Source: Bacilli bacterium
GTDB taxonomy: Bacteria > Bacillota_I > Bacilli_A > RFN20 > CAG-826
Direction of reading: 5' to 3'
Length of the DNA: 32,584 nucleotides
Assembly: GCA_024408305.1 (NCBI GenBank)
Contig: JAKSVD010000001.1
Location: 1-32,584 of the forward strand
Each line of letters starts with the position of its first letter. The stretch's first letter is position 1. The notes beneath the pieces were generated by a model. The model made no database searches. It was not told where the DNA came from and worked only from the letters and a program-made list of their open reading frames with translations. The position numbers and the translations under genes were made by a program. Shown here piece by piece: positions 4,797-22,035 of this stretch.

Positions 4797-5504
4797 TTAG
4801 ATTCCTCCCTCGATTGCAGAATCGATCATCTTAAGCACTTCTTCATCAGCAAAGAATTCCTCGATTGGTTTCAAATATCCAAGAGCGATTATTCTCTTTG
4901 CATCATCTTCTGATATGCCGCGCGACTCAAGATAGAACAAATGTTGTTCATTTAATCTTCCGACGACTGCAGCGTGACTAGCCTGGACGTCATTATCATC
5001 AATTCTAAGAATTGGCATGGCTTTGCCATCGCTATCTTTATCGAAAACAATTATCTTTGCGTCTTGTCTTGTGTTTGCGTTAACAGATCCATGTTTGATA
5101 TGGCTAGTTCCTGAGAAAGTTAGATTACCGGAATCTCTTGCAATACCATAATTTGACATCAATGCATTTGTGCCTTCTGAATTATGCATTACTGATGTTT
5201 CAAACACTTTCTTTTCATCTTTATGTGCGAGGGAAGCTAAATGCCAATTGCATGAAGCTCCAAAACCGTTGAGATTTACGTTGATAACGAACTTTCCTGC
5301 ATTTGGAGAAAAATCAGCAAAAGCACCCTCAACTAAGCCGCCTTCTTCAACATCAATATCTATTTTTCCCTCGATAGACGAATTGAAAATAGCAAAATTG
5401 ATCTTGAGAGTTTCCCCACCCTTTACAACGATGTGTTCGTTACTTGGAATTTCGTCAATGTAAAGTAAGGAATTTAGGTTTTCGCTACTTACTGTCTTTA
5501 CCAT
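4797..5504 (-). CDS. sufD: Short SufD-like Fe-S assembly protein (~235 aa)
   Basis: It sits between sufC and sufS. The C-terminal motif HAAVVGRLNEQHLFYLESRGISEDDAKRII is SufB/SufD-type. The track start at 5534 is a TTG with no ribosome-binding site. I prefer the ATG at 5502-5504 (MVKTVSS...), but the start remains uncertain. Confidence 0.8.
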   Translation of the reverse strand: MVKTVSSENLNSLLYIDEIPSNEHIVVKGGETLKINFAIFNSSIEGKIDIDVEEGGLVEGAFADFSPNAGKFVINVNLNGFGASCNWHLASLAHKDEKKVFETSVMHNSEGTNALMSNYGIARDSGNLTFSGTSHIKHGSVNANTRQDAKIIVFDKDSDGKAMPILRIDDNDVQASHAAVVGRLNEQHLFYLESRGISEDDAKRIIALGYLKPIEEFFADEEVLKMIDSAIEGGI

Positions 5505-6321
5505 TGATCTTAACCTTTGTGGCACATGCTCCAATTGATACTTTATTCATTGGTGAATCGGTTTCTTTCTCGATGTCGATTCCTAATTCTGTCTTGATCC
5601 ATTCGTAACCATTCTTATCGATCTTCTCGATTAATTCAGGTCCACCTTCAACTGCGATTCTACCGTTTACCAATACAGCGGCTCTAGTTGGGTTGATCAA
5701 TCCATACAATCTTGCATAGTGAGAGATGACAAGGAATCCTGCACCTCTTTCCTGTTCTTTTCTGATTGCAGATGCAACCACCTGCAATGCATCTACGTCT
5801 AATCCTGAGTCAATTTCATCTAACATTGCAAACTTTGGTGCGAGAAGTTTCATCTGGAGAATTTCATTTCTCTTCTTTTCACCACCGGAGAATCCTTCAT
5901 TTAAATTTCTCTTAGACATTTCGAACGGAATTCCGATTTCAGCATATGCATCCTGTAATGATTTATAGAATGTGAATAATGACATAGGTTTTTCTCTATG
6001 CGCGTTCATAGCTGACTTAAGGAAATCAGCTGAATTTAATCCAGGAATTTCAGCAGGATACTGCATGCCGAGGAAAATACCAGCCTTGCTTCTTAAGTCT
6101 GGAGTCATAGCGAGCACATCCTCGCCATCTAAATATATTTCGCCTTCAGTGACCTCAAATGCTGGGTTACCCATGATAGCGGCAAGCAATGTTGACTTGC
6201 CGTGGCCATTAGGACCTAAGAGGGCTAATGTCTCGCCTTCTTTAAGCTCTAGGTTAACGCCTTTGAGGATTTCTTTGCCCTTAACTGAGGCATGTAAATT
6301 CTTAATTATTAGTGTTGCCAT
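5485..6321 (-). CDS. sufC: Fe-S cluster assembly ATPase SufC
   Basis: Walker A GPNGHGKST, ABC signature FSGGEKKR, Walker B AMLDEIDSGLD. I prefer the ATG at 6319-6321 (MATLIIKNL...), preceded by GGAGAAACT. The track ATG at 6342 has no ribosome-binding site and lies upstream of the predicted transcription start. Confidence 0.93.
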   Translation of the reverse strand: MATLIIKNLHASVKGKEILKGVNLELKEGETLALLGPNGHGKSTLLAAIMGNPAFEVTEGEIYLDGEDVLAMTPDLRSKAGIFLGMQYPAEIPGLNSADFLKSAMNAHREKPMSLFTFYKSLQDAYAEIGIPFEMSKRNLNEGFSGGEKKRNEILQMKLLAPKFAMLDEIDSGLDVDALQVVASAIRKEQERGAGFLVISHYARLYGLINPTRAAVLVNGRIAVEGGPELIEKIDKNGYEWIKTELGIDIEKETDSPMNKVSIGACATKVKINGKDSK

Positions 6322-6342
6322 AGTTTCTCCAAAATCGAACAT

Positions 6343-6371
6343 ATTCTAATAGAACCCAAAAAATGCTTCAA
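6343..6371 (-). promoter_or_regulatory. Putative sigma-A promoter of the suf operon
   Basis: Minus strand reads TTGAAG (6371..6366), a 17-nt spacer, then TAGAAT (6348..6343), about 22 nt upstream of the preferred sufC ATG. Confidence 0.55.
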
Positions 6372-6440
6372 ATAATACGATAAAAAATATTAAAAAACGC
6401 GTGTTTTGCGCAAAAACTTTAAAAAGGTGAAAAATACCCC

Positions 6441-6469
6441 TTGCAACAATTCTCTTAAGAGAATATATT
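6441..6469 (+). promoter_or_regulatory. Putative sigma-A promoter of the lipoprotein gene pair, with an embedded 16-bp perfect palindrome
   Basis: TTGCAA (6441-6446), a 17-nt spacer, then TATATT (6464-6469). The spacer contains ATTCTCTTAAGAGAAT (6449-6464), a perfect palindrome. The ribosome-binding site AAGGAGGA (6491-6498) and the ATG at 6514 follow. Confidence 0.55.
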
Positions 6470-6513
6470 TACACAGCAACGTTTTCGTGCAAGGAGGAAC
6501 GAGTCCACACACT

Positions 6514-8673
6514 ATGAAAAAGAAAAAATGTGCTCTCGGACTAGTCGCTTTACTAGCTGCAACCGCAGGTTTAGCTAGCTGTGATTGGCCAACCAAAACA
6601 AATAACGGCATCATCTTAACCTATACAGACGCCACAGGCGCTCGTGTTGGTTACACTGCAGAAGAGTTATTTGGAACCTATCGCCAGTCATCAGGATCAT
6701 TAAGCACTGAGTTCGACAAAGTTTACGAAGTTCTGGTTCGTAAATATTATGATGAGGTCAAGACATCTGTTAAGAAAGACCTCGAAGTTACAGCAAACGA
6801 AGATGTCATCAAAGATAAACAGAACGCTACAGAAAACGCCAATAACAATGGCACTACATTCGAAGAGGAATTAGAAAAGATTCTTAAGAGTCAGGGATGT
6901 GACGATGTTGATGAGCTCTATCAGCACCACCTCTACGAACTTGAGAAAGAAAGATTCCAGTCCGATATGTATCAGACATACGGAACACAGAGTTCTAAGG
7001 TCAATGGTTTAGAGACAATGAAGAATGGTTTCTACACCAAGGAAGACGGAACAAAGGTCGAAGCATTCCCAGCAAGCTCTGAATGGGGCGCAGGCAACGA
7101 AGGTTGGTTAAAGGAGCAGATCCCATACCACATCCGTCACGTCTTAGTTAAGTTATCAGCAGGCACTGCAGGAAACTTCACACAGGACAAGATCGGTGAA
7201 TCAACCGCTGTTGACGCTGGTGGCGAAACAACAAAACTCGCTAACGTCGTCTTATCTCTCGCAGGCGCATCAGTCGGCGATGATGGAAAGATCGGCTCAA
7301 CAAACACAAGACTTACATTCGGCGAAATCGCTCAGCAGTATTCAGATGACGGATCCGCTTCAGCTTATGGTGAATACGGAATCATGTCAAAGACTATGGC
7401 AGCTGACTTAGTCCACGAATTTAAGCTTGGTACATATGTATTCGACACACTTTACAACAACAGAACACAGGAATCAGCTTATGGTAAGGCAAATGCATAC
7501 CGTTTAGCACCTGGTCTTAAGTCAGACGCAACTGCAACAGCTGACAACCTCGGATCAATTGCTGACCAGAATCAGACAATCAAGGTTTCAGGCGTTGATA
7601 AGCCAGTCTACGAATACTTCAAGGACATCGGCGTTGGCCAGATTCCATTCGGCGCAGCAGTCGCTCTCTTACAGAACGCTAAGGTCGTCAAGGACGCTAA
7701 TGGTAACGTCGTTAACGAGGACAACGACACATTCTTCCCTCGTAACGTCATCTACAATAAATACTTTAATAAGCATAACGTGTGCGTAGTCACACCTAAC
7801 GCTATTGCTTCAAACGTCGGCAGCTCATACAACTCAGCAGCTACAGACACAGCAGCAGCTACAGCTTATGCAGGTTTAACAGTCACAGCTGGCAATGTCA
7901 CAGGTGACTTAAGTGGTGTTGGCGCAGAAGGCGTCTACTCATCACAGTACGGTGCACTCCCAGGATTCCAGAAGGACACAACAAATGTTCTTCCACAGTT
8001 CGCTAACAACGTCTTAACAGACAACGCAGGAAACATCATCCTCGCTGTTAGAGCTGGTGCATCATCATATCAGGGTATCCACTTCATCGTCGTCCAGAGA
8101 TCAGGCTTAAGCGAATATGGCTTAAAGGAAGTCGGCGGACAGATTGTTGAAGCAACAGAAGAAGGCTCAGAGGCATCATCAACATCCCTCTCAAGCTACT
8201 ACACAACATATACCCCATCTCAGAACAACTACCCTAAGGCAGGAACTGAAGTTAGAAACACATACGTTAACTACAACGTTCAGCAGACAGCAAACTTCAA
8301 CGAAAGAGCAAATAAAATCGCTGAAGAAATCAAGGGTTACAACAGCAACCTCTCAACATACTGGTTCCAGTACCTTGTTGAAAACCAGAACGTCGAATTC
8401 ACAGCAGACGCAAATGATATCAAAGAAGACATCATGACATTCTGCCAGACAAAGAGACAGTCAACAATCAACGCTAACAACCAGATTTGGGAAGACAACT
8501 GGAAAGAATACGCAGAGCAGATCGCTGCACAGGAAGAAGCACGTCAGCGTGGTTTTGCAACAGGTACAGGCTCACTCATCAGCGAAGTTTGTGCTATCGG
8601 TTACGGAAAGCCTAACAAGTCAGGCGATAAGTTATGGGAGAAGGGAGGAGCTTGCTACTATGCTACCAAGTAA
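6514..8673 (+). CDS. Large lipoprotein; PrsA/SurA-like foldase with an expanded parvulin-type PPIase-like domain
   Basis: The ATG at 6514 follows AAGGAGGA. Signal peptide plus lipobox: MKKKKCALGLVALLAATAGLASC. Parvulin-like landmarks: HIRHVLVK, FGEIAQQYSDDGSASAYGEYGIMSK, LVHEFKLGTYVF and YQGIHFIVVQR. The functional call rests on motif recall only. Confidence 0.75.
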   Translation: MKKKKCALGLVALLAATAGLASCDWPTKTNNGIILTYTDATGARVGYTAEELFGTYRQSSGSLSTEFDKVYEVLVRKYYDEVKTSVKKDLEVTANEDVIKDKQNATENANNNGTTFEEELEKILKSQGCDDVDELYQHHLYELEKERFQSDMYQTYGTQSSKVNGLETMKNGFYTKEDGTKVEAFPASSEWGAGNEGWLKEQIPYHIRHVLVKLSAGTAGNFTQDKIGESTAVDAGGETTKLANVVLSLAGASVGDDGKIGSTNTRLTFGEIAQQYSDDGSASAYGEYGIMSKTMAADLVHEFKLGTYVFDTLYNNRTQESAYGKANAYRLAPGLKSDATATADNLGSIADQNQTIKVSGVDKPVYEYFKDIGVGQIPFGAAVALLQNAKVVKDANGNVVNEDNDTFFPRNVIYNKYFNKHNVCVVTPNAIASNVGSSYNSAATDTAAATAYAGLTVTAGNVTGDLSGVGAEGVYSSQYGALPGFQKDTTNVLPQFANNVLTDNAGNIILAVRAGASSYQGIHFIVVQRSGLSEYGLKEVGGQIVEATEEGSEASSTSLSSYYTTYTPSQNNYPKAGTEVRNTYVNYNVQQTANFNERANKIAEEIKGYNSNLSTYWFQYLVENQNVEFTADANDIKEDIMTFCQTKRQSTINANNQIWEDNWKEYAEQIAAQEEARQRGFATGTGSLISEVCAIGYGKPNKSGDKLWEKGGACYYATK

Positions 8674-10288
8674 TTTCAGAAAGAAAGGCATCCTTGCTCT
8701 TCTTACAGCAGTCGCTTCAGCTGGCATGCTCGCAGCTTGCTCAGACATCGAAGCAAAGCCAATCGATGAAAAATACAACGCAGCTCTCGTTACTGGCAAC
8801 AACATCAAGAATAACGCATTAAGCGAAATCTATGATGCTCTTGTCAAAGCTGGCGATGCTAATTCATCAAAGGTCTTAAATAACATCCTCTACATCTATT
8901 CACAGTCCATCTACGGAAACTTCTGGGAAATCAACGAAGCTATCGGAAACGATGCAAAGCTCGGTGATATCGCATCAAAGTATGAAGTCTATGGCGGTGA
9001 CAAGACAAAGGTCGTCGATTTCTATAACGAAGTCATCTACCGTATCAAATCAACATTCTTGGGCTATGTCCAGGATTCAGCTTACCAGGAAAGATCACAC
9101 TTCATCGAAAAGAAGTTCTATGATGCACAGATCAAGAACTACTACGATTTAGCAAAGAGAACAACTGAAAACAAGGCTTATAACGATGATAAGAAGCTTG
9201 TTGAAGGCGGATTCCGTTTAAGCGAAACATACGTAGAGTCAGGCGACATCATCCTTGATGCTGCAGGCGATACATCAAAGAAGTCATACTTCTTCGACAT
9301 CCTCGGCACATACAAGAACTACATCGAATCAAATCTCTTATCTGATATCTACAGAAACGAGTTAACAGCTCAGTACATCTATTCTCAGAACAGAAGCCAG
9401 ATCAAGCTCACAGCTGCAAGAAAGATCGAAACAATCTCTCTTAAGGACAACGATCGTTATCCAAACGCAGTCCGTGACTTAGTCAAGGCATACTGCAAAA
9501 ACGTTGTCGCTACAGATAAGGTCGCTGATTACGACTTCAGATTCCTTGATAATATCAACAAGGGAACTATGGATAACTTCTCTGCAGAACAGGCATCAAT
9601 GGCTGCAACTATCCTCGGAGAAGCAGGCTGGACAAAGAACGGTTCATATTATGTCGAATCACAGCTCGGCACAATCATGGCTCAGTATGACAAGCTCACA
9701 GACAATCGTTTCGACGATGATACAGCAATCAGAGGCGACTTCACAAACTCAGGTGCTTACACAGTTGAAACAGGTCTTGAAATCAAGACAAATTCCTTGA
9801 AGACAAAGAGCTCAACAAACTATGGCTGGTACACTCCAGGCCAGGCAGACGGCGCTCTTCCATCATCTCTCTCAAAGAGATTATTCAAGGTCCAGGTTGC
9901 TAACGAAGTTGACCACAAGGACGATGCAGCAGTCTCCTTCAAGTATGGCTCATACATCGGTAATACATATTACCTCAACCCAGAGACATACGAAGATGGA
10001 ACAGCATATCCATATGCAGTCTACGACTCAGGCACATGGTACATCTGCAAAGTTGAAGAAGCAGTCAAGTCATCAAAGATCTCTGGCGGTGCTGATTCAT
10101 ACAACACAGACGCAGACCAGAATGCTGAAGAGAGAATCTCACGCAAGATCGGTTATATGCTCTCAAGCAACGATTCTTATAAGTCAAAAGCTCAGAAGTA
10201 TTACGTTAACGAAATGGCTATCATCTATAACGATTCCCACGTTTACCACTACTTCAAAGAGACATTCCCAGATCTCTTCAACGATTAA
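8660..10288 (+). CDS. Second large lipoprotein; distant paralog-like partner of the upstream gene, function unknown
   Basis: The ATG at 8660 follows GGGAGGAG and overlaps the upstream stop by 14 nt. Signal peptide plus lipobox: MLPSNFRKKGILALLTAVASAGMLAAC. There is a weak resemblance to the C-terminal half of a parvulin domain (NYGWYTPGQADGALPSSLSKRLF..., GTWYICKVEEAV). Confidence 0.7.
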   Translation: MLPSNFRKKGILALLTAVASAGMLAACSDIEAKPIDEKYNAALVTGNNIKNNALSEIYDALVKAGDANSSKVLNNILYIYSQSIYGNFWEINEAIGNDAKLGDIASKYEVYGGDKTKVVDFYNEVIYRIKSTFLGYVQDSAYQERSHFIEKKFYDAQIKNYYDLAKRTTENKAYNDDKKLVEGGFRLSETYVESGDIILDAAGDTSKKSYFFDILGTYKNYIESNLLSDIYRNELTAQYIYSQNRSQIKLTAARKIETISLKDNDRYPNAVRDLVKAYCKNVVATDKVADYDFRFLDNINKGTMDNFSAEQASMAATILGEAGWTKNGSYYVESQLGTIMAQYDKLTDNRFDDDTAIRGDFTNSGAYTVETGLEIKTNSLKTKSSTNYGWYTPGQADGALPSSLSKRLFKVQVANEVDHKDDAAVSFKYGSYIGNTYYLNPETYEDGTAYPYAVYDSGTWYICKVEEAVKSSKISGGADSYNTDADQNAEERISRKIGYMLSSNDSYKSKAQKYYVNEMAIIYNDSHVYHYFKETFPDLFND

Positions 10289-14265: not shown

Positions 14266-15510
14266 ATGGACAAAAAGAAAAACAAATATCCTGCAAAGTC
14301 TGTTTTCATGGCCGGTATTGTCACTTTCGCAATTGGTGTTGTCGCTCTCATCGCTTCAACATTCACATTGTTTAATGGCACAACTAACCTTGTCTTCGAT
14401 TCATTTGCAAAAATCTTTGGCGTTATCGGTGGAGCATTCACTGCTAACGCATCAGTTTTAGGCGGTGCTAAATCAACACTTGCCGCAATCGCTGTCGCCT
14501 TCGTTGGATTCGTGGTCGAGATGTTCTTCGTCATCGACTTCGCAGTCGCAAAGAAGAAAAGAGCAACAGTAGCTGCAGTTCTTGCAACACTCGGATGGTT
14601 ATTCATCTGCTTAATGTTAGAGTGCTTCTTACTTGCTAGAGAAGCTAATTCGCTAAGAATCCGCTATGTCGGTGCTATTGGTATCATTGGCATCTTGCTC
14701 GCATTATCATTATTTGCATTAACAATCTTCATGATCGTTTCCTACATGGACAAGGTCAACGAAGAAGCTGCACAGATTAAGGCAGAAAACGAACCAGTTG
14801 CTGATCCAGCAGACACTCAGGAACCTACCACAACAGAAGTTACTCCAGAACCAGAGCCTGAAGAAGATGATTCAGACCTCATGACTGGCGAAGAACTTCG
14901 TATGATGATCAAGGAAGAAATCGAAATCGTCCTTGCTAACAGAGAAGAAAAAGACGAATCTGTCACTGAAAAACAGGTCAGAGAAATCGTTGAAGAAATG
15001 CTCAAAGACTATCAGCCAGTTGCTCCAGTTGACGAAGATGTCGAACAGGACGACGAAGAAGAAGGCGAAGAAACAGTTGAAGTCGTTGCTGAAAACGGTG
15101 CTGCAGAAATCGTTAAGAAGCCAAGAAAGAAACGTACAAAATTCGAATCAAAACTCAAGAGATTGGATAAGGATCTCCGCCACAAATACTATGACCTCCG
15201 CGACTACATCAAGTCATACGGAATCAACAACAGAGTCTCTATTCCAGGCGACACATTCTCACTCCACCGTGAGCGTTATGCATTCATCACAATCGCAGGT
15301 ACAAAGATTAAGATTTGGCTTGCACTTGACCCAGCCAAGTATGCAGATTCACCAATTCCAGTTGAACCAGCTAAGACAAAGAAATTTGAGGACCTCCCAT
15401 CAGTCTTCAAGGTCAAGAGTGACCTCTCCTTCAGAAGAGCTAAAAAGCTCATCGACGATGTAATGGCAGCTAAGGGCATTGAAAAGCCAGCTGAACCAGA
15501 AGCAAAGTAA
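14266..15510 (+). CDS. Hypothetical membrane protein: N-terminal TM bundle, acidic/proline-rich linker, basic C-terminal globular domain
   Basis: 414 aa with ribosome-binding site AAGGGGAAG. About 5 hydrophobic helices lie in residues 10-160. The low-complexity linker reads EPVADPADTQEPTTTEVTPEPEPEEDDSD...VEQDDEEEGEE. The C-terminal ~130 aa are lysine/arginine-rich (KKPRKKRTKFESKLKRL...AFITIAGTKIKIWLALDP...). I recognise no family. Confidence 0.7.
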   Translation: MDKKKNKYPAKSVFMAGIVTFAIGVVALIASTFTLFNGTTNLVFDSFAKIFGVIGGAFTANASVLGGAKSTLAAIAVAFVGFVVEMFFVIDFAVAKKKRATVAAVLATLGWLFICLMLECFLLAREANSLRIRYVGAIGIIGILLALSLFALTIFMIVSYMDKVNEEAAQIKAENEPVADPADTQEPTTTEVTPEPEPEEDDSDLMTGEELRMMIKEEIEIVLANREEKDESVTEKQVREIVEEMLKDYQPVAPVDEDVEQDDEEEGEETVEVVAENGAAEIVKKPRKKRTKFESKLKRLDKDLRHKYYDLRDYIKSYGINNRVSIPGDTFSLHRERYAFITIAGTKIKIWLALDPAKYADSPIPVEPAKTKKFEDLPSVFKVKSDLSFRRAKKLIDDVMAAKGIEKPAEPEAK

Positions 15511-16884: not shown

Positions 16885-17670
16885 TTAAAAACCCATAGAG
16901 ACAAGTTCTTCACAAAGCATTGAATAGAAGTGATAGATCTTGTCTTTTTTCTTTGAGGATGTCATGTAGTCCATGATCTCCGAATGGGAAATGGAGGCGT
17001 CCCCTATCGCTTCCCCACGGTATACCCCAAAGATTGCAGAATCCTGAGGAACCATGCCATCTGATGGTATCTTCTTTTCGAAATAGTGTGAGAAGGCTAA
17101 AGGTATGCTCATCCAGAAATCATCCTTGCACTTCTTCATCGTGCAGGAATAAGACTGGCAATAGATTTTATCTGAGAAGTTAAGAAGTTCTTTTTCGGAC
17201 ACTTCTCTCCTTTCTAATTCTCGACATACTTCTAAAGCGTTTGGATGTTTATCTCCAAATATTCTATAGAATGTGTTCACAAAGAAAGCGATTATTGCAA
17301 GAATCCATTTAGGCAACCTCAATACATTCGAGGCAATTGGGGAACCTCTATGTGGCGTGCACAAAGTGGTGAGACTAGCAACATGATCCTCCATACCCAA
17401 TTCTTTTATCATGTATTTAGCATCCAATCCGCCCTTGGAGTGGGCAATGATATTGACTTTATCAACGCCTTCCTCTTCCATAATATGAAGGATTTTCTCT
17501 TTTATCTGCATTCCATTTGTTTTTGATGTGCCAAACGCATCATGATTGCTTATGTACACATGGTAACCTTGGATTTTAAGGATTCTATCAATGTAACCGA
17601 ACGCTCGAAAGAAACGGATGTCTTTCACCGCGATGCCATGAACAAGGATAATCGGATACTTAGTTTGCAT
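16885..17670 (-). CDS. Alpha/beta-hydrolase, lipase/esterase-like
   Basis: YPIILVHGI oxyanion-region motif and nucleophile elbow AHSKGG. I prefer the ATG at 17668-17670 (MQTKYP...); the track start at 17676 is a TTG. There is no ribosome-binding site upstream. Confidence 0.75.
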   Translation of the reverse strand: MQTKYPIILVHGIAVKDIRFFRAFGYIDRILKIQGYHVYISNHDAFGTSKTNGMQIKEKILHIMEEEGVDKVNIIAHSKGGLDAKYMIKELGMEDHVASLTTLCTPHRGSPIASNVLRLPKWILAIIAFFVNTFYRIFGDKHPNALEVCRELERREVSEKELLNFSDKIYCQSYSCTMKKCKDDFWMSIPLAFSHYFEKKIPSDGMVPQDSAIFGVYRGEAIGDASISHSEIMDYMTSSKKKDKIYHFYSMLCEELVSMGF

Positions 17671-17676
17671 GTTCAA

Positions 17677-17685
17677 AGTATATCA
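17677..17685 (-). promoter_or_regulatory. Extended -10 element (TGATATACT) placed 6 nt from the lipase ATG; candidate leaderless promoter
   Basis: Minus strand reads TTTTGATATACT-TTGAAC-ATG, with no Shine-Dalgarno sequence. Confidence 0.4.
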
Positions 17686-17713
17686 AAAGAAAAATCCACC
17701 GGTAGACCGATGG
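17685..17713 (-). terminator. Minus-strand rho-independent terminator with no annotated gene upstream
   Basis: The minus-strand RNA reads CCAUCGG-UCUA-CCGGUGG (7-bp stem with one G-U pair) followed by AUUUUUCUUUU. The plus-strand version has no T-tract. Confidence 0.55.
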
Positions 17714-17736
17714 ATATCTTTCTACAGCAAGTAGAC

Positions 17737-17840
17737 TACTTCTTTAAGAAAGAGAGCTCCGTTAACGCCAAGAACGATGAGAACAAGTCCAAGTGAGATG
17801 AGTTCTCAAAGCCTAACCATGAAGCGCCTGTGCCTGCCAT
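17737..17840 (-). CDS. Possible 34-aa small ORF upstream of the orphan terminator (very uncertain)
   Basis: My translation from the ATG at 17838-17840 is MAGTGASWLGFENSSHLDLFSSFLALTELSFLKK*. There is no ribosome-binding site. The only support is its position just upstream of the terminator at 17685-17713. Confidence 0.15.
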
Positions 17841-17971
17841 TATATAAATATCTGTGGGTTTTTGTGGTATTTTTCGTGCGTATTCAGTTTAAATTGTAAA
17901 TATTTCAATTTCCTCTAACAGCAACACCCTATTTTCAAGTTATAATAATCCTCCGGAAGGAAACATACCTT

Positions 17972-19450
17972 ATGAAAAAACTCGCTTTCGACAATGCCCA
18001 CTATTTAAAGGTACAAAGAGAGAACATCAATAAGAGAATCGCTACTTTCGGAGATAAACTGTATCTTGAATTCGGCGGCAAATTATTCGATGACCTCCAT
18101 GCAGCTCGCGTCTTGCCTGGATTCCATTCAGACGCAAAACTTCAGATGCTTCTTGGTTTAAAGGATAAAACTGAGATCGTCATCACCGTCAACACAGGAG
18201 ACATCATTTCCAATAAGTTCAGAAACGACATTGGAATCTCATATCAGGACGAAGTCGTCCGCTTAATTGGTTTGTTAACAGGAGTCGGACTTTATGTTGG
18301 CTCAGTTGTTTTATCATTCTATCAGCCAAACCCAATTGTTGAAGTTTTCGAACAAAAACTCAACAAAAGCGGAGTCAAGACATACCACCACTACAAGATT
18401 AACGGATATCCGCACAACATCCCGCTCATCTTAAGCGATGATGGCCTTGGCAAAAACGACTACATCGAAACAACAAAGCCATTAGTCGTCATCACGGCTC
18501 CAGGCCCAGGATCCGGCAAAATGGCAACCTGCTTATCTCAGCTCTACCACGAAAACATCAGAGGCGTCAGAGCGGGATATGCTAAATACGAAACATTCCC
18601 TGTTTGGAATCTCCCTCTCATGCATCCAGTAAACCTTGCATATGAGGCCGCAACAGTTGATCTTGCAGATGTCAATATGATTGACCCATTCCATCTCGAA
18701 AAATACGGAAAGGTCGCAATCAACTACAACCGTGACGTCGAAGTATTCCCACTCCTTAGATCAATCTTTGAGAAGATTTGGGGTGATTGCCCATATTTCT
18801 CACCAACCGATATGGGTGTCAACATGGTCGGATTCGGAATCAAGCACGACGAAGGAACATGTGAAGCTTCTAAGCAGGAAATCGTAAGACGTTACTATCA
18901 GGCTCTCAAGAACAACTACTTAGGCAAATTCAGCGACGCTGCAGTTGAGAAAGCAAAGCTTGTCATGAATCAGGTCGGAGTCGATACATCATATAGAAAA
19001 TGTGTTGCTCCATGCTTAAAGAAATATGAGGAGACCAACCTTCCTGTCGTATCAATCCAGCTTCCAAACGGCAAGATCGTCACAGGCAAGAAATCTGAAT
19101 TATTGACCGCTCCTGCTGCTGCATTGATCAACGCCCTCAAGGCACTTGCCAAGATTGATGATTCATACGATTTAATCTCAAGCAACCTCATCACTCCAAT
19201 CAGAGACCTCAAGGTCAATGACTTACATCATAGAAACCCATCTCTCCACGTTGAAGAGGTTCTCATCATCCTTGCCCTCCAGGCATCATCAAACCAGCTC
19301 TGCGAACTCGCAATCGCACAAGTTGGCAAAATCAAAGGAGCTCAGGCTCACGCATCTAACATCATGGCAGATGTTGACCTCAGCACTTATAAGAAACTTG
19401 GAATTGACGTAACCGAAGAACCAATCAGCTACGCAAATCTAGCAAAATAA
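17972..19450 (+). CDS. DUF1846 / UPF0371 family protein (conserved, function unknown)
   Basis: 492 aa. The N-terminus FDNAHYLKVQRENINKRIATFGDKLYLEFGGKLFDDLHAARVLPGF matches my recollection of the UPF0371 family. A TATAAT at 17941-17946 and a GGAAGGA ribosome-binding site lie upstream. Confidence 0.8.
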   Translation: MKKLAFDNAHYLKVQRENINKRIATFGDKLYLEFGGKLFDDLHAARVLPGFHSDAKLQMLLGLKDKTEIVITVNTGDIISNKFRNDIGISYQDEVVRLIGLLTGVGLYVGSVVLSFYQPNPIVEVFEQKLNKSGVKTYHHYKINGYPHNIPLILSDDGLGKNDYIETTKPLVVITAPGPGSGKMATCLSQLYHENIRGVRAGYAKYETFPVWNLPLMHPVNLAYEAATVDLADVNMIDPFHLEKYGKVAINYNRDVEVFPLLRSIFEKIWGDCPYFSPTDMGVNMVGFGIKHDEGTCEASKQEIVRRYYQALKNNYLGKFSDAAVEKAKLVMNQVGVDTSYRKCVAPCLKKYEETNLPVVSIQLPNGKIVTGKKSELLTAPAAALINALKALAKIDDSYDLISSNLITPIRDLKVNDLHHRNPSLHVEEVLIILALQASSNQLCELAIAQVGKIKGAQAHASNIMADVDLSTYKKLGIDVTEEPISYANLAK

Positions 19451-19467
19451 GAAGGAAAACTAAAATG

Positions 19468-19500
19468 CCCCTTGTCCTGATAAATAGGAAAGGGGTTTTT
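19468..19500 (+). terminator. Rho-independent terminator of the DUF1846 gene
   Basis: Stem CCCCTT-g-TCCT (19468-19478) / AGGA-AAGGGG (19486-19495) with loop GATAAAT, followed by TTTTT (19496-19500). Confidence 0.75.
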
Positions 19501-19533
19501 AGATGTTTTATAACTCAATGAGTCATTAGATTC

Positions 19534-19568
19534 TGTAACCTACATTTTGATAACTCATAGTAGGTTAT
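19534..19568. repeat. Direct repeat copy 1 (35 bp) at the 3' end of the HipA-like gene; contains an inverted repeat TAACCTAC-N16-GTAGGTTA
   Basis: TGTAACCTACATTTTGATAACTCATAGTAGGTTAT is 33/35 identical to 20869..20903 in the same orientation. The last codons and the TGA stop of the HipA-like ORF lie inside it. Confidence 0.9.
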
Positions 19569-20850
19569 GGAAATTCTTTAATACTCGGAAACCGCTCATA
19601 ACATATTCTATGACATCATTCACATTTTCTATTCCGCCGTTTGCCACTGTTATCATTTCCTGATTAACCACAGGCAGTTCTAAAGACTTATATAATATAG
19701 CGGCATGCCTATTCTTCTTTATGAAAGAATGGAATGCATTTATCATTCCTCTTTTGTTGGACATGTCTTTTGGTCTGCCAGAAACAAACATTGCCATGTT
19801 GTTGTCGTAATTAGGAGCTAAAGAGATAATCCTTCCTGTTGTTTGATCTCGAAGAAAAGCTAGATTTTCATTATGTCTATCGACATTATTAACAAGGCAA
19901 TCAAACCACATAAATATCAAATACTGTTTCGCTATTTCTTCACCCAAAGAAAGAACAACGGGGAATACATTTTCGTATGAATCGTCATCTCCTGCTAAAG
20001 ACGAAATAGGCTCAAGGTTATATCCTTTTGCGATATTTTTGGTCTTTATATAACCATCTTCTATTTCGTACTCAGCAGTAGGAATTGATAGAAGTTTTGC
20101 CAATCTCGATGAGAATAACTCCGCAAAAAGTTCATCTTTATTCCCTTTCTTATACATCCACCACTCACCATCAATCATTTTCCAACACTTCTCATAACTG
20201 CCTGTATTGGTGAGTTCTGGCGTAATTACGGGCTTTGAAGGAATATTCAAAAGATTACCGTCGAGCGCAACCGCGGAATACAAGTTATCCTTGAAAATTA
20301 TTTCATCATAATGCTTGTTTGATTTTAGAGGTCTGAACCAATAGGCATCCGTAATCGTTAATGCATATGCACTTATGACCGAGCGAATCTCATTATTATC
20401 TTTTAATCTCAACGCTTTCCTGAGCAATCTTGAATGTGTTCTATGAGAATCGATTGATCTAGACTCAAGCCATGATGCCAAGTCTCTTGTCCTTTTTATG
20501 TATAGCGGAACAAGATGTTCGTCTATATAAGTGGCAACGCCCTCATCAAAAGAAGCGATAACTTTATCGAACAACATTAAATCGCCAGTTAAAGATAGAG
20601 CGTGTTCTCCAAGCTTTGCTAACTTCACTCCGTTACTTAAGCGTCTACTTATCTCCTCTTCTATTGTTTTTCTTTCTATCAATTGAGCCTCGACAGTAGC
20701 AATATCTTTCGACTTGATGTATTTGCTGACTATCTTGCTTCCTTCTCTATATTGCAGATAAAAACGCACCTTCCCGTTGATTATCTTCTTCGAGATATAT
20801 CCCTTTGGTAAGGTTTCTAACTTAGTTTTCATTTCCTCAATACTTGACAT
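19555..20850 (-). CDS. HipA-like Ser/Thr kinase family protein (type II toxin-like), with no adjacent HipB-type partner
   Basis: 431 aa. The C-terminal kinase-core motifs are CLVNNVDRHNENLAFL ... GRIISLAPNYDNNMAMF (HipA_C-type catalytic D-x-H-x-x-N and the LAP-x-YD loop). A nucleotide-binding-region-like stretch reads GSYEKCWKMIDGEWWMYKKG. I do not recognise the N-terminal ~170 aa. Confidence 0.75.
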   Translation of the reverse strand: MSSIEEMKTKLETLPKGYISKKIINGKVRFYLQYREGSKIVSKYIKSKDIATVEAQLIERKTIEEEISRRLSNGVKLAKLGEHALSLTGDLMLFDKVIASFDEGVATYIDEHLVPLYIKRTRDLASWLESRSIDSHRTHSRLLRKALRLKDNNEIRSVISAYALTITDAYWFRPLKSNKHYDEIIFKDNLYSAVALDGNLLNIPSKPVITPELTNTGSYEKCWKMIDGEWWMYKKGNKDELFAELFSSRLAKLLSIPTAEYEIEDGYIKTKNIAKGYNLEPISSLAGDDDSYENVFPVVLSLGEEIAKQYLIFMWFDCLVNNVDRHNENLAFLRDQTTGRIISLAPNYDNNMAMFVSGRPKDMSNKRGMINAFHSFIKKNRHAAILYKSLELPVVNQEMITVANGGIENVNDVIEYVMSGFRVLKNFHNLL

Positions 20851-20856
20851 ATTGCG

Positions 20857-20885
20857 ATGATATCAAATTGTAACCTACATTTCAA
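20857..20885 (-). promoter_or_regulatory. Putative promoter of the HipA-like gene: -35 TTGAAA inside repeat copy 2, extended -10 TGATATCAT, 6 nt to the ATG (leaderless geometry)
   Basis: Minus strand reads TTGAAA (20885..20880), a 17-nt spacer, TATCAT (20862..20857) preceded by TGA, then CGCAAT-ATG. There is no Shine-Dalgarno sequence. Confidence 0.45.
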
Positions 20886-20903
20886 TAACTCATAGTAGGT
20901 TAT
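20869..20903. repeat. Direct repeat copy 2 (35 bp) at the 5' end of the HipA-like gene
   Basis: TGTAACCTACATTTCAATAACTCATAGTAGGTTAT differs from copy 1 only at repeat positions 15-16 (CA versus TG). It has the same internal inverted repeat and abuts the U-tract of the pyr operon terminator. Confidence 0.9.
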
Positions 20904-20934
20904 AAAGAAAACCACCAACCGCTTGGCTGGTGGT
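20904..20934 (-). terminator. Rho-independent terminator of the pyr operon
   Basis: The minus-strand RNA reads ACCACCAGCC-AAGC-GGUUGGUGGU (10-bp stem with one G-U pair) followed by UUUCUUUAU. It lies 13 nt after the pyrB stop. Confidence 0.8.
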
Positions 20935-20946
20935 TTATAGCGTTAC

Positions 20947-22035
20947 TTAAGCGAGTTTGTCGCAGTAAATACACCTGCAGACATTATTCTCTTCGTCTAC
21001 GACTTTGAAGACCTGGTCGAGTTCTTGCTCATTCTGAGAAATGCACTTTGTGTTGGTGCATCTATATCTATTGATGAGCAACTTCTCTCCAGCGAATCTA
21101 TCAACAATTACTGGATCCTTAGCCTTTTCTTCTAAAAGTTTAAGGATGAGGGCCATTCTCATGTGTTTTCCATTTAAGCACTGCTCGAAGTAAACCGCTC
21201 TTGGATCAGCATCGACTTTAACAGAGATCTCATTGACTCTTGGGAGTGGATGCAAGACATACATATCACTCTTAGCCTTAGCCATCTTCTCAACATCTAA
21301 GACATATGAGTTTTTGAGTCTTTCATATTCTTCAGGATCATCGAATCTTTCTCTCTGGATTCTTGTCATGTAAAGGATATCCAAGCATCCGATATTATCT
21401 TCAAGGCTTGTGACCTCAACATATTCCATATTGTTCTTCTCAAGAACTTCTTCCTTGATGTAATCAGGGAGGACTAATTCTTTTGGAGAGATAAGAACGA
21501 TATTGACGTTGTTATAACGGGATAATGCGCCGATTAATGAATGGACGGTTCTTCCATACTTTAAATCTCCGCAGAAACCGACTGTAAGGTTGTCAAAGCC
21601 GCCTTTATGCTTATAGATTGTAAGTAAATCAGCAAGAGTCTGAGTTGGATGGCAGTGACCTCCATCTCCGCCGTTGATGACAGGGACGCTAGCGTTGATT
21701 GATGCAACGTATGATGAACCTTCAACCGGTGATCTCATTGCAATGATATCAGCATAGCAAGAGATGACTTTTGCAGTGTCTGCATAGCTTTCGCCCTTTG
21801 CAGCGCTTGATGAGCTAGCTGAAGAGAATCCGATAACCGAACCTCCAAGCTCCCACATAGCAGCTTCGAAGCTCAATCTGGTTCTTGTTGATGGTTCAAA
21901 GAATAGAGTGGCTAGCTTCTTTCCTTTGCAAGCTTCAGAGTATTTTGCAGGGTTGTTGCCAATATCGATGGCAACATCCATCATTTCCTTTAATTCGTCA
22001 ACGCTGAAGTCGACGATATCAATAAGGCTTCTCAT
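20947..22035 (-). CDS. pyrB: Aspartate carbamoyltransferase catalytic chain fused to a C-terminal PyrI-type zinc-binding domain
   Basis: ATCase motifs: [27 protein letters not shown]. The extra C-terminal ~60 aa contain [33 protein letters not shown], a four-Cys pattern resembling the PyrI C-terminal domain. Confidence 0.9.

Follow-up and report, generated by a model that had tools for sequence, protein, structure and literature searches.

A partnerless HipA-family kinase gene between two copies of its putative operator in a Bacilli genome

In the HipBA type II toxin-antitoxin systems, the kinase held on DNA is in its inactive state, as seen in HipA-HipB-DNA structures. Monocistronic Hip kinases carry an N-terminal helix-turn-helix (HTH) in HipH or a C-terminal HIRAN domain in HipL (Gerdes et al., PMC8262856). 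In Escherichia coli, the HipA-family kinase HipH (also YjjJ) is encoded as a single gene and has a DNA-binding domain at its N-terminus (PMC8262856, PMC9948734). The gene described here lies in a 32,584-nucleotide (nt) stretch of a Bacilli bacterium metagenome-assembled genome (contig JAKSVD010000001.1, positions 1 to 32,584; called the window here) and encodes a HipA-family kinase that matches neither of these architectures. It stands alone between two copies of a palindromic repeat. With a confidence slightly better than even, we read the locus as a one-gene module that is complete in itself: a toxin or defence kinase that regulates its own expression through a DNA-binding domain in the same chain, with a second site for that domain to bind. 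Stretches used for comparison are cited by handle (L001 and the like).

The kinase gene and its paired palindromes

The 431-residue product is a HipA-fold kinase with intact catalytic residues, as judged from sequence profiles and a structure prediction. The Pfam HipA_C match is borderline (30.6 bits against a cut-off of 30.5). Most of the 954 homologues measure 430–462 residues, and most have a precomputed PF07804 match. The AlphaFold (AF2) model has a mean confidence (pLDDT) of 89.5, and Foldseek matches it to full-length HipA chains, N-terminal subdomains included, with E values of 8e-8 to 1e-5 (8e-8 to 1e-6 for 3dnt/3tpt, and around 1e-7 for the best matches) over approximately 430 columns and a TM-score of about 0.5. 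A profile of 38 homologues compared with the PDB found CtkA (E 2.8e-6), and the catalytic residues align with the CtkA motif DRHNGN...APIFD. Residues G217, S218, E220, K221, D324, R325, N329, and D349 are invariant in the 38 sequences. Because the Gly-rich loop, the catalytic loop (D324-R-H-N-E-N329), and D349 are all invariant in the family, the kinase is expected to be active. It may also be toxic. No close relative was found in the phage collection (best identity 25 %) or in the plasmid collection (best 34 % over 63 % of the protein), and a phage or plasmid origin was rejected on these grounds.

The gene lies between a DUF1846 gene (17972-19450, forward strand) and the pyr operon, whose pyrB (20947-22035, reverse strand) is upstream of the kinase gene and runs in the same direction. 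In the flanks, which measure 104 and 96 nt, there is neither a HipB-type nor any other small partner open reading frame (ORF) of at least 40 residues. An adjacent HipB (HTH) antitoxin gene is absent at this locus and likewise in the relatives examined. No recombinase is encoded in the 32.6-kb window.

Two direct repeats of 35 nt, identical at 33 of 35 positions, bracket the gene (coordinates in Table 1). These are the only copies in the window, where none is expected by chance, and both contain the inverted pair TAACCTAC-N16-GTAGGTTA. Copy 1 includes the end of the reading frame, with its last codons (NFHNLL) and the stop codon TGA (19555-19557). At the other end, a promoter scan gave 10 of 12 matches for a kinase-gene promoter whose spacer holds the right palindrome arm. 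The ATG follows 6 nt past the predicted -10 box, without a Shine-Dalgarno sequence. Thus far the preliminary description of this DNA holds good: it had reported a lone 431-residue HipA_C-type kinase with the motifs NVDRHNENLAF and LAPNYDNN, flanks of about 100 bp without a HipB-sized ORF, the repeats with their N16-spaced arms, a stop codon and last codons supplied by copy 1, two convergent terminators (copy 1 begins about 33 nt past the end of the DUF1846 terminator, and copy 2 abuts the U-tract of the pyrB terminator), and no recombinase.

The same unit recurs elsewhere. The homologues in L001 (75 % identity), L002 (52 %), and L009 (51 %) lie in other contexts and have the palindrome at both sides. 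A DNA-pattern scan of one genome per species returned 18 stretches, 10 of which carry a HipA-like gene (39–51 % identical to the window protein) bracketed by palindromes, and a metagenome scan added six further such stretches. The unit occurs in at least 11 unrelated neighbourhoods, since 11 representative cassettes have no common neighbour protein within 3.5 kb. No recombinase is common to the neighbourhoods of the cassettes examined, and no cassette arrays were found; the kinase gene is always single.

We aligned 13 cassettes by their gene ends, and the anatomy is constant. The left arm TAACCTAC is followed by a 14–16-nt loop bearing the -35 box (mostly TTGAAA), and the right arm GTAGGTTA lies within the promoter spacer. 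The -10 box comes next, then 6–8 nt and the ATG, without a Shine-Dalgarno sequence in any of the 13. The position and geometry of the upstream palindrome are matched in all 13 and also in relatives that have only this copy. The short distance from the -10 box to the ATG and the missing Shine-Dalgarno sequence suggest that the kinase mRNA is probably leaderless, with the start predicted from sequence.

The downstream palindrome contains the stop codon in 13 of 13 cassettes, either as a TAA of the left arm or as a TGA two nucleotides past it. This copy is no promoter, because its -35 box is destroyed in eight of the 13 and the -10 box lies outside the repeat. Its arms are near-perfect in cassettes whose proteins are just 39–51 % identical to the window protein, which argues that the downstream site is under selection. 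The two palindrome loops of any one cassette match fully or almost fully, but those of different cassettes do not; in L018, a T-to-C change is present in the loops of both copies and in no other cassette. The window and L001 both have a live -35 box in the upstream copy and a dead one in the downstream copy, and the solo palindrome of L026 (see below) is of the dead type. Extra upstream palindrome sites are present in L015, L017, and L021.

Simpler readings of the palindromes were rejected. As RNA, the downstream palindrome folds into a hairpin of -11.8 kcal/mol (z -3.4) that has no U-tract. The hairpins have 3 G-C pairs and a 14–16-nt loop, no T-run follows them in any cassette, and real terminators adjoin, so they are not terminators. 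A REP-, REPIN-, or MITE-type repeat, a possibility raised in the preliminary description, does not fit two copies in the window and one stretch each in contigs of 727 and 511 kb. A likeness of the arms to Firmicute dif sites was dropped, as only ATGTA agrees and the spacer is far too long. The arms and layout do not make an integron gene cassette or a pdif module either: there are no RYYYAAC / GTTRRRY cores in TAACCTAC/GTAGGTTA and no 11-6-11 dif layout, and the unit bears a promoter.

Some observations were made beside these. The cassette of L009 (Bacillales UBA1744) has an SbcC-like ATPase, a Fic protein, and an MNT/HepT pair in its neighbourhood (1198-1996, 7025-8077), where toxin or defence genes are thus frequent. 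L011 holds a distant member of 462 residues (5466-6668) that has just the upstream palindrome. The gene immediately after it encodes a tyrosine integrase, and this member is probably on an integrative element. In L014 (3446-3483) and L040, which have the same sequence and come from a Ruminococcus metagenome-assembled genome, a TetR-like gene is preceded at 4 nt by a palindrome of this kind, which a further half-site overlaps; probably this is the operator of something unrelated and matches the pattern by chance. The unrelated metagenome contigs L039, L047, and L048 have several copies of TAACCTAC, direct and inverted, within approximately 100 nt.

The N-terminal domain and its putative operator

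The first 75 residues form a small domain (N-domain). In the AF2 model, it consists of a helix (residues 4–13), three strands (18–24, 27–36, and 39–45), and a long helix (47–72), and residues G17, Y18, S20, K22, Y31, and R60 are invariant. No HTH family was matched in the Pfam scan of the window protein. When 23 N-domains were combined into a profile, it retrieved 460 proteins, with E values down to 1.5e-26. They are mostly DUF6788 proteins of about 97 residues, and PF20586 is present on all 120 of the 460 matches that were listed.

The DNA pattern leads to the same domain. In the metagenome match L038, the palindrome lies 6 nt before the gene of a 194-residue protein, in which a homologous N-domain and an MNT nucleotidyltransferase form one chain; a HepT toxin gene comes next. 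In L051, the palindrome lies 3 nt before a stand-alone N-domain protein of 106 residues, followed by an NTP_transf_8 gene. The hhalign probabilities of the kinase N-domain against those of L038 and L051 are 98.6 % and 97.4 %. In the opposite direction, two look-ups of DUF6788 proteins showed them followed by an NTP_transf_8 gene of about 252 residues (nine places shown), and the promoters inspected (L057, L062) have TTAACCTAC-N21/22-GTAGGTTAA around the -35 box plus an extra half-site. The conserved pair in L057-L065 (DUF6788, 97–98 residues; NTP_transf_8, 252–253 residues) is found on elements with relaxase/NikA/MmeI or VapE/GP3_package genes and looks like an uncharacterised toxin-antitoxin or defence pair.

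Some kinases have the upstream palindrome only. These are the closer relative L055 (50 % identical) and the distant L010 and L011 (~45 %); in the latter two, both arms have changed symmetrically to TAACCTAT...ATAGGTTA. All family members examined have the upstream palindrome, to which a subset adds the downstream copy. We infer that the palindrome is the operator of the family's N-domain, because the two are associated across three protein architectures and the association was found both from DNA to protein and from protein to DNA. The N-domain stands where DNA-binding antitoxins stand in toxin-antitoxin operons. The preliminary description had suggested that the N-terminus might carry the missing partner function; from the association with DUF6788 and the palindrome, that function appears to be DNA binding, and repression would be its likely outcome. 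Its other suggestion, that the hairpin is an attL/attR-like attachment site, fares less well. The hairpin appears to be the family's own promoter and operator, and it is kept upstream even in relatives without the downstream copy, so it is no pre-existing attachment site.

We propose the following model. The N-domain (DUF6788-like, alpha-beta-beta-beta-alpha) would recognise the half-site TAACCTAC, and a dimer would presumably occupy the two inverted arms. In the promoter of the kinase gene itself, the -35 box lies between the arms of the upstream palindrome, which also takes up the spacer, so the bound protein would repress transcription. With a leaderless start, read-through transcripts from neighbours would be translated poorly, and expression would thus be independent of context. 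The downstream palindrome over the stop codon would be a second binding site for the kinase protein. It might serve as an auxiliary operator, through cooperative repression or looping, or keep the kinase tethered to DNA. A multi-operator design of this sort fits the three cassettes that have additional sites upstream. As a by-product, two direct repeats of 35–42 nt would allow precise deletion of the gene, leaving a solo palindrome, and would give conserved boundaries for allele exchange.

Empty sites, allele history, and competing explanations

Precise empty sites with one palindrome were found at three loci. The first is L026, which shares 93 % identity with the window over the pyr operon and 94 % with L001; it has, in order, DUF1846, a 161-residue gene, one palindrome, the pyrB terminator, and pyrB, without the kinase gene. 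The preliminary description had predicted just such a one-copy site at the DUF1846/pyrB junction. L027 and L034 represent the L002 locus minus the gene and one repeat, and their flank alignments overlap by exactly the 39-nt repeat. L019 relates to L044 in the same way. An exact-protein look-up of pyrB for more junctions found none on record.

The L002 locus could be polarised. L033, which has the cassette, is the outgroup (~94–96 %) to a cluster of 97–98 % identity made up of L002 (cassette) and L027 and L034 (solo palindromes). Between L002 and L033, the gene is 96.0 % identical and the flanks 95.3 % and 92.7 %, whereas both palindromes are identical at 39 of 39 positions (0 changes in 78 nt against 4–7 % divergence around them). 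As the gene is as similar as its flanks, the cassette at this locus was inherited vertically, and since the outgroup has it, the L027 and L034 solos are deletions between the repeats. By this comparison of sequences, the polymorphism is a loss by repeat-to-repeat deletion and not an insertion. No gain into a naive site was seen, nor a circle junction. The attL/attR-type recombination of the preliminary description finds no support here: there is no sign of site-specific recombination, and the best-resolved locus is a deletion. No target-site duplication is present past the palindrome, and the repeats reach just 2–7 nt beyond the arms. Contigs of 1.37–1.46 kb were considered as circles and rejected. 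The 18-nt end overlap of L056 is that expected of a collapsed 42-nt repeat at k=31, and L055 is without a downstream site.

The window locus has a different history. The kinase alleles of the window and L001 differ at a proportion of synonymous sites (pS) of 0.80, which is saturated, with a nonsynonymous divergence (dN) of 0.17; the adjacent DUF1846 gene has a synonymous divergence (dS) of 0.30 and a dN of 0.008. Cassette homology between them covers 19534-20910, the two repeats plus 7 nt, as expected of the one-gene unit that the preliminary description had proposed, and the palindromes are identical or nearly so. Because the alleles have diverged far more than their hosts and the homology is bounded by the repeats, at least one allele has been brought in or exchanged at this locus. 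A 161-residue gene with a weak HTH_19 match and transmembrane segments lies between the palindrome and DUF1846 in L001 (1653-2138) and L026 (~166-651) and is absent in the window. The window spacer at 19503-19533 is probably its remnant, with weak similarity, and the deletion ends at the outer edge of the palindrome. A further contig, L008 (Logan SRR17543910), is 100 % identical to window 17625-19532 and stops one base before the repeat region. This contig end could reflect low coverage or an assembly-graph branch at the cassette boundary.

Several points weigh against the self-contained module that we favour. A fold search of the PDB gave no significant match for the N-domain (best E 0.16; likeness to an arm-type integrase domain or SRP9/14, at E of only 0.2–1, was rejected). 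Pfam DUF6788 (PF20586) does not match the window protein at E up to 1, and the precomputed matches on relatives are mostly marked weak. Binding to the arms alone leaves the universal overlap of stop codon and palindrome unexplained, and likewise the matching of loops within cassettes and their difference between cassettes. The second site is not needed for gene retention, since L010, L011, and L055 have the upstream site only. The spread to at least 11 unrelated neighbourhoods and the changes that abut outer palindrome edges are also unexplained. The window-locus alleles, saturated in divergence between hosts at a dS of 0.30, call for a transfer mechanism that the model does not supply.

Many of these points are what a dedicated mobile one-gene cassette would predict, and we keep this explanation as an unlikely alternative. 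The palindromes would then be recombination sites like lox, attC, or dif, with inverted protein-bound arms and an asymmetric centre that must match. A recombinase encoded elsewhere, possibly guided by the cassette's DNA-binding kinase, would excise a 1.3-kb circle whose single palindrome joins the gene end to the promoter, and the circle would reintegrate at solo palindromes. The three empty sites, the varied contexts, the allele homology that ends at the palindromes, the stop codon always inside the site in an extremely compact layout, the loop matching with the L018 change in both copies, and the structural changes of close relatives at the outer palindrome edges all fit. The live upstream and dead downstream -35 boxes of the window and L001, with the dead type in L026, fit an attP x attB crossover near the left arm. 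Against this, no recombinase is in the window or common next to the cassettes examined, no arrays were found, and the gene's own N-domain explains the arms. The sole polarised polymorphism is a loss for which ordinary repeat recombination suffices, and no circle junction was seen; k-mer collapse of the 42-nt repeat explains the 1.37-kb contig. Typical tyrosine-recombinase sites have spacers of 6–8 bp, and the 14–16-nt spacers here are too long for them. We are equally doubtful of a promoter-carrying one-gene mobile cassette in Bacillota whose ends are recognised by its cargo's DNA-binding domain, with solos as landing sites, and of a related variant in which the 3' site captures new kinase in cis and the DNA is the antitoxin. 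That direct repeats alone account for deletions, and that L055 and the distant L010 and L011 have no downstream copy, would suit repeats that are now functionless: the downstream copy would be a relic of arrival or of a duplication (e.g. tandem duplication and partial deletion), and the gene would encode just another orphan HipA-like toxin. This is improbable, as near-perfect downstream arms at 39–51 % protein identity are impossible for neutral sequence, the L002 and L033 palindromes are unchanged where their surroundings are not, and the stop-codon overlap is universal among cassettes. We give similarly little weight to a role of the downstream palindrome as RNA, whether as a 3' stem-loop that stabilises or terminates a leaderless mRNA or as RNA bound by the N-domain. 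The transcribed strand does fold into a hairpin, and the strand order of the N-domain is that of double-stranded RNA-binding domain (dsRBD) and SRP9/14 modules, which are among its fold matches. However, these matches are not significant, no U-tract follows the hairpin and the host terminators come next, and the upstream copy and the other DUF6788 operators lie upstream of the predicted starts and are not transcribed from them. The autoregulated module with a second binding site thus remains our preferred explanation.

Genomic setting and comparison with known systems

The features are listed in Table 1. The pyrB terminator insulates the cassette from the pyr operon.

Table 1. Positions of the features discussed (window coordinates, unless a handle is given).
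Feature	Position	Strand	Details
Coding sequence of HipA-family kinase with DUF6788-like N-domain	19555..20850	-	431 residues, single chain; from the ORF list
N-terminal domain, residues 1-75	20626..20850	-	Putative operator-binding domain
Kinase core	19555..20238	-	Approximately residues 205-431
Gly-rich loop GSYEK			G217-K221
Catalytic loop	19864-19881		D324-N329
Mg-binding residue	19804-19806		D349
Upstream palindrome, repeat copy 2	20869..20903	-	Read as operator 1; arms 20895-20902 and 20871-20878; -35 in loop
Promoter-like site	20857..20885	-	-35 TTGAAA (20885-20880), 17-nt spacer, TG-extended -10 TATCAT (20862-20857)
Downstream palindrome, repeat copy 1	19534..19568	-	Arms 19560-19567 and 19536-19543; -35 equivalent changed to TCAAAA
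Spacer between DUF1846 terminator and palindrome	19503..19533	-	ATGACTCATTGA resembles last codons of relatives' 161-residue gene
DUF1846 intrinsic terminator	19460..19502	+	-19.4 kcal/mol, z -4.4; usable in both directions
pyrB intrinsic terminator	20909..20936	-	-19.3 kcal/mol; U-tract abuts repeat copy 2
HepT/MNT pair with DUF6788-like N-domain on the MNT antitoxin	L038 114-1053	reverse	TAACCTAC...GTAGGTTA 6 nt before ATG

The remaining genes of the window are suf, recX, pyr/car, and ABC genes. The kinase gene has the lowest guanine-plus-cytosine (GC) content of the 23 window ORFs of at least 200 residues (36.7 %; the other 22 have a mean of 42.2 % and a standard deviation of 2.4). The contrast seen in the preliminary description is therefore real but was overstated there, with 32–35 % for the gene and 45–47 % for neighbours that in fact measure 44.0 % (DUF1846) and 41.9 % (pyrB). 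The GC content at third codon positions, 36 %, is no outlier, as other window ORFs are at 33 %. Composition is weak evidence for a foreign origin of the gene. Among the neighbours, PyrB has OTCace_N and OTCace domains plus a C-terminal PyrI_C zinc-binding domain; it is an aspartate carbamoyltransferase catalytic chain fused to part of the regulatory chain. Three ORFs on the forward strand, 6406-8673, 8549-10288, and 14266-15510 (755, 579, and 414 residues), have no Pfam match at 1e-5, and the first two overlap by approximately 125 nt.

The locus suggests a function for the uncharacterised domain DUF6788, namely sequence-specific operator binding at the half-site TAACCTAC, as predicted from sequence. 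Proteins that begin with it belong to at least three toxin or defence architectures of Bacillota from gut and rumen. The kinases themselves form a large family of single-chain HipA-type proteins without an antitoxin gene (hundreds of clusters, one with ~2,500 member sequences), and they bear on the question of how partnerless Hip kinases such as HipH stay silent. With its promoter within an operator, a start that is probably leaderless, and another operator across the stop codon, this would be a portable, context-insulated toxin gene, and the flanking repeats offer a simple way for it to be lost precisely or to swap alleles. Were recombination by a dedicated mechanism involved, the unit would be a new cassette system, integron-like without an integron.

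Of the described systems, HipH/YjjJ shares with this locus a single gene with no adjacent antitoxin and an N-terminal DNA-binding module (here a predicted one) joined to a HipA-type kinase with all core motifs. YjjJ (NF007297) is the sole NCBIfam model with any match, but at 21.3 bits it is far below the cut-off of 401, and the N-domain of the window protein is a DUF6788-like sheet-plus-helix module, not a helix-turn-helix. We know of no operator pair flanking yjjJ and of no leaderless layout there. The HipBA systems of E. coli and Shewanella, which give the top structural matches, have the same kinase fold and are autoregulated by way of palindromic operators that overlap the promoter, several per promoter; here, in contrast, there is no HipB gene, DNA binding would lie within the kinase chain, and the second operator is at the 3' end of the gene. 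CtkA of Helicobacter pylori (JHP0940) is the closest solved structure by sequence profile and its DRHN.N...D motifs align, but it has no counterpart of the first 200 residues and is described as a pro-inflammatory kinase that is secreted. The PADLOC PDC-M03A models match the kinase core (best E 4e-14). PDC-M03, a PADLOC candidate of the hipIN type (HipA + HIRAN), is a two-gene system with a HIRAN protein (PMC13245101), and no HIRAN gene lies beside the window kinase, so membership was rejected.

The DUF6788 + NTP_transf_8 and MNT(DUF6788-fused)-HepT modules (L038, L051, L057-L065) have a homologous N-domain and arms TAACCTAC/GTAGGTTA around the promoter, as here. They differ in their separate nucleotidyltransferase or HEPN toxin partner, in an arm spacing of 14 or 21–22 nt, and in having no downstream palindrome; the NTP_transf_8 modules also have a Shine-Dalgarno sequence, unlike the kinase cassettes. 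Integron cassettes (attC) and Xer-dependent pdif modules resemble the unit in a single ORF, imperfect palindromes of the same orientation, a stop codon at the site, empty or solo sites, and varied contexts. The unit described here differs from them in that it has no integrase and no array, only loss is shown, the promoter is inside the site, and the arms appear to be the operator of the cargo protein itself.

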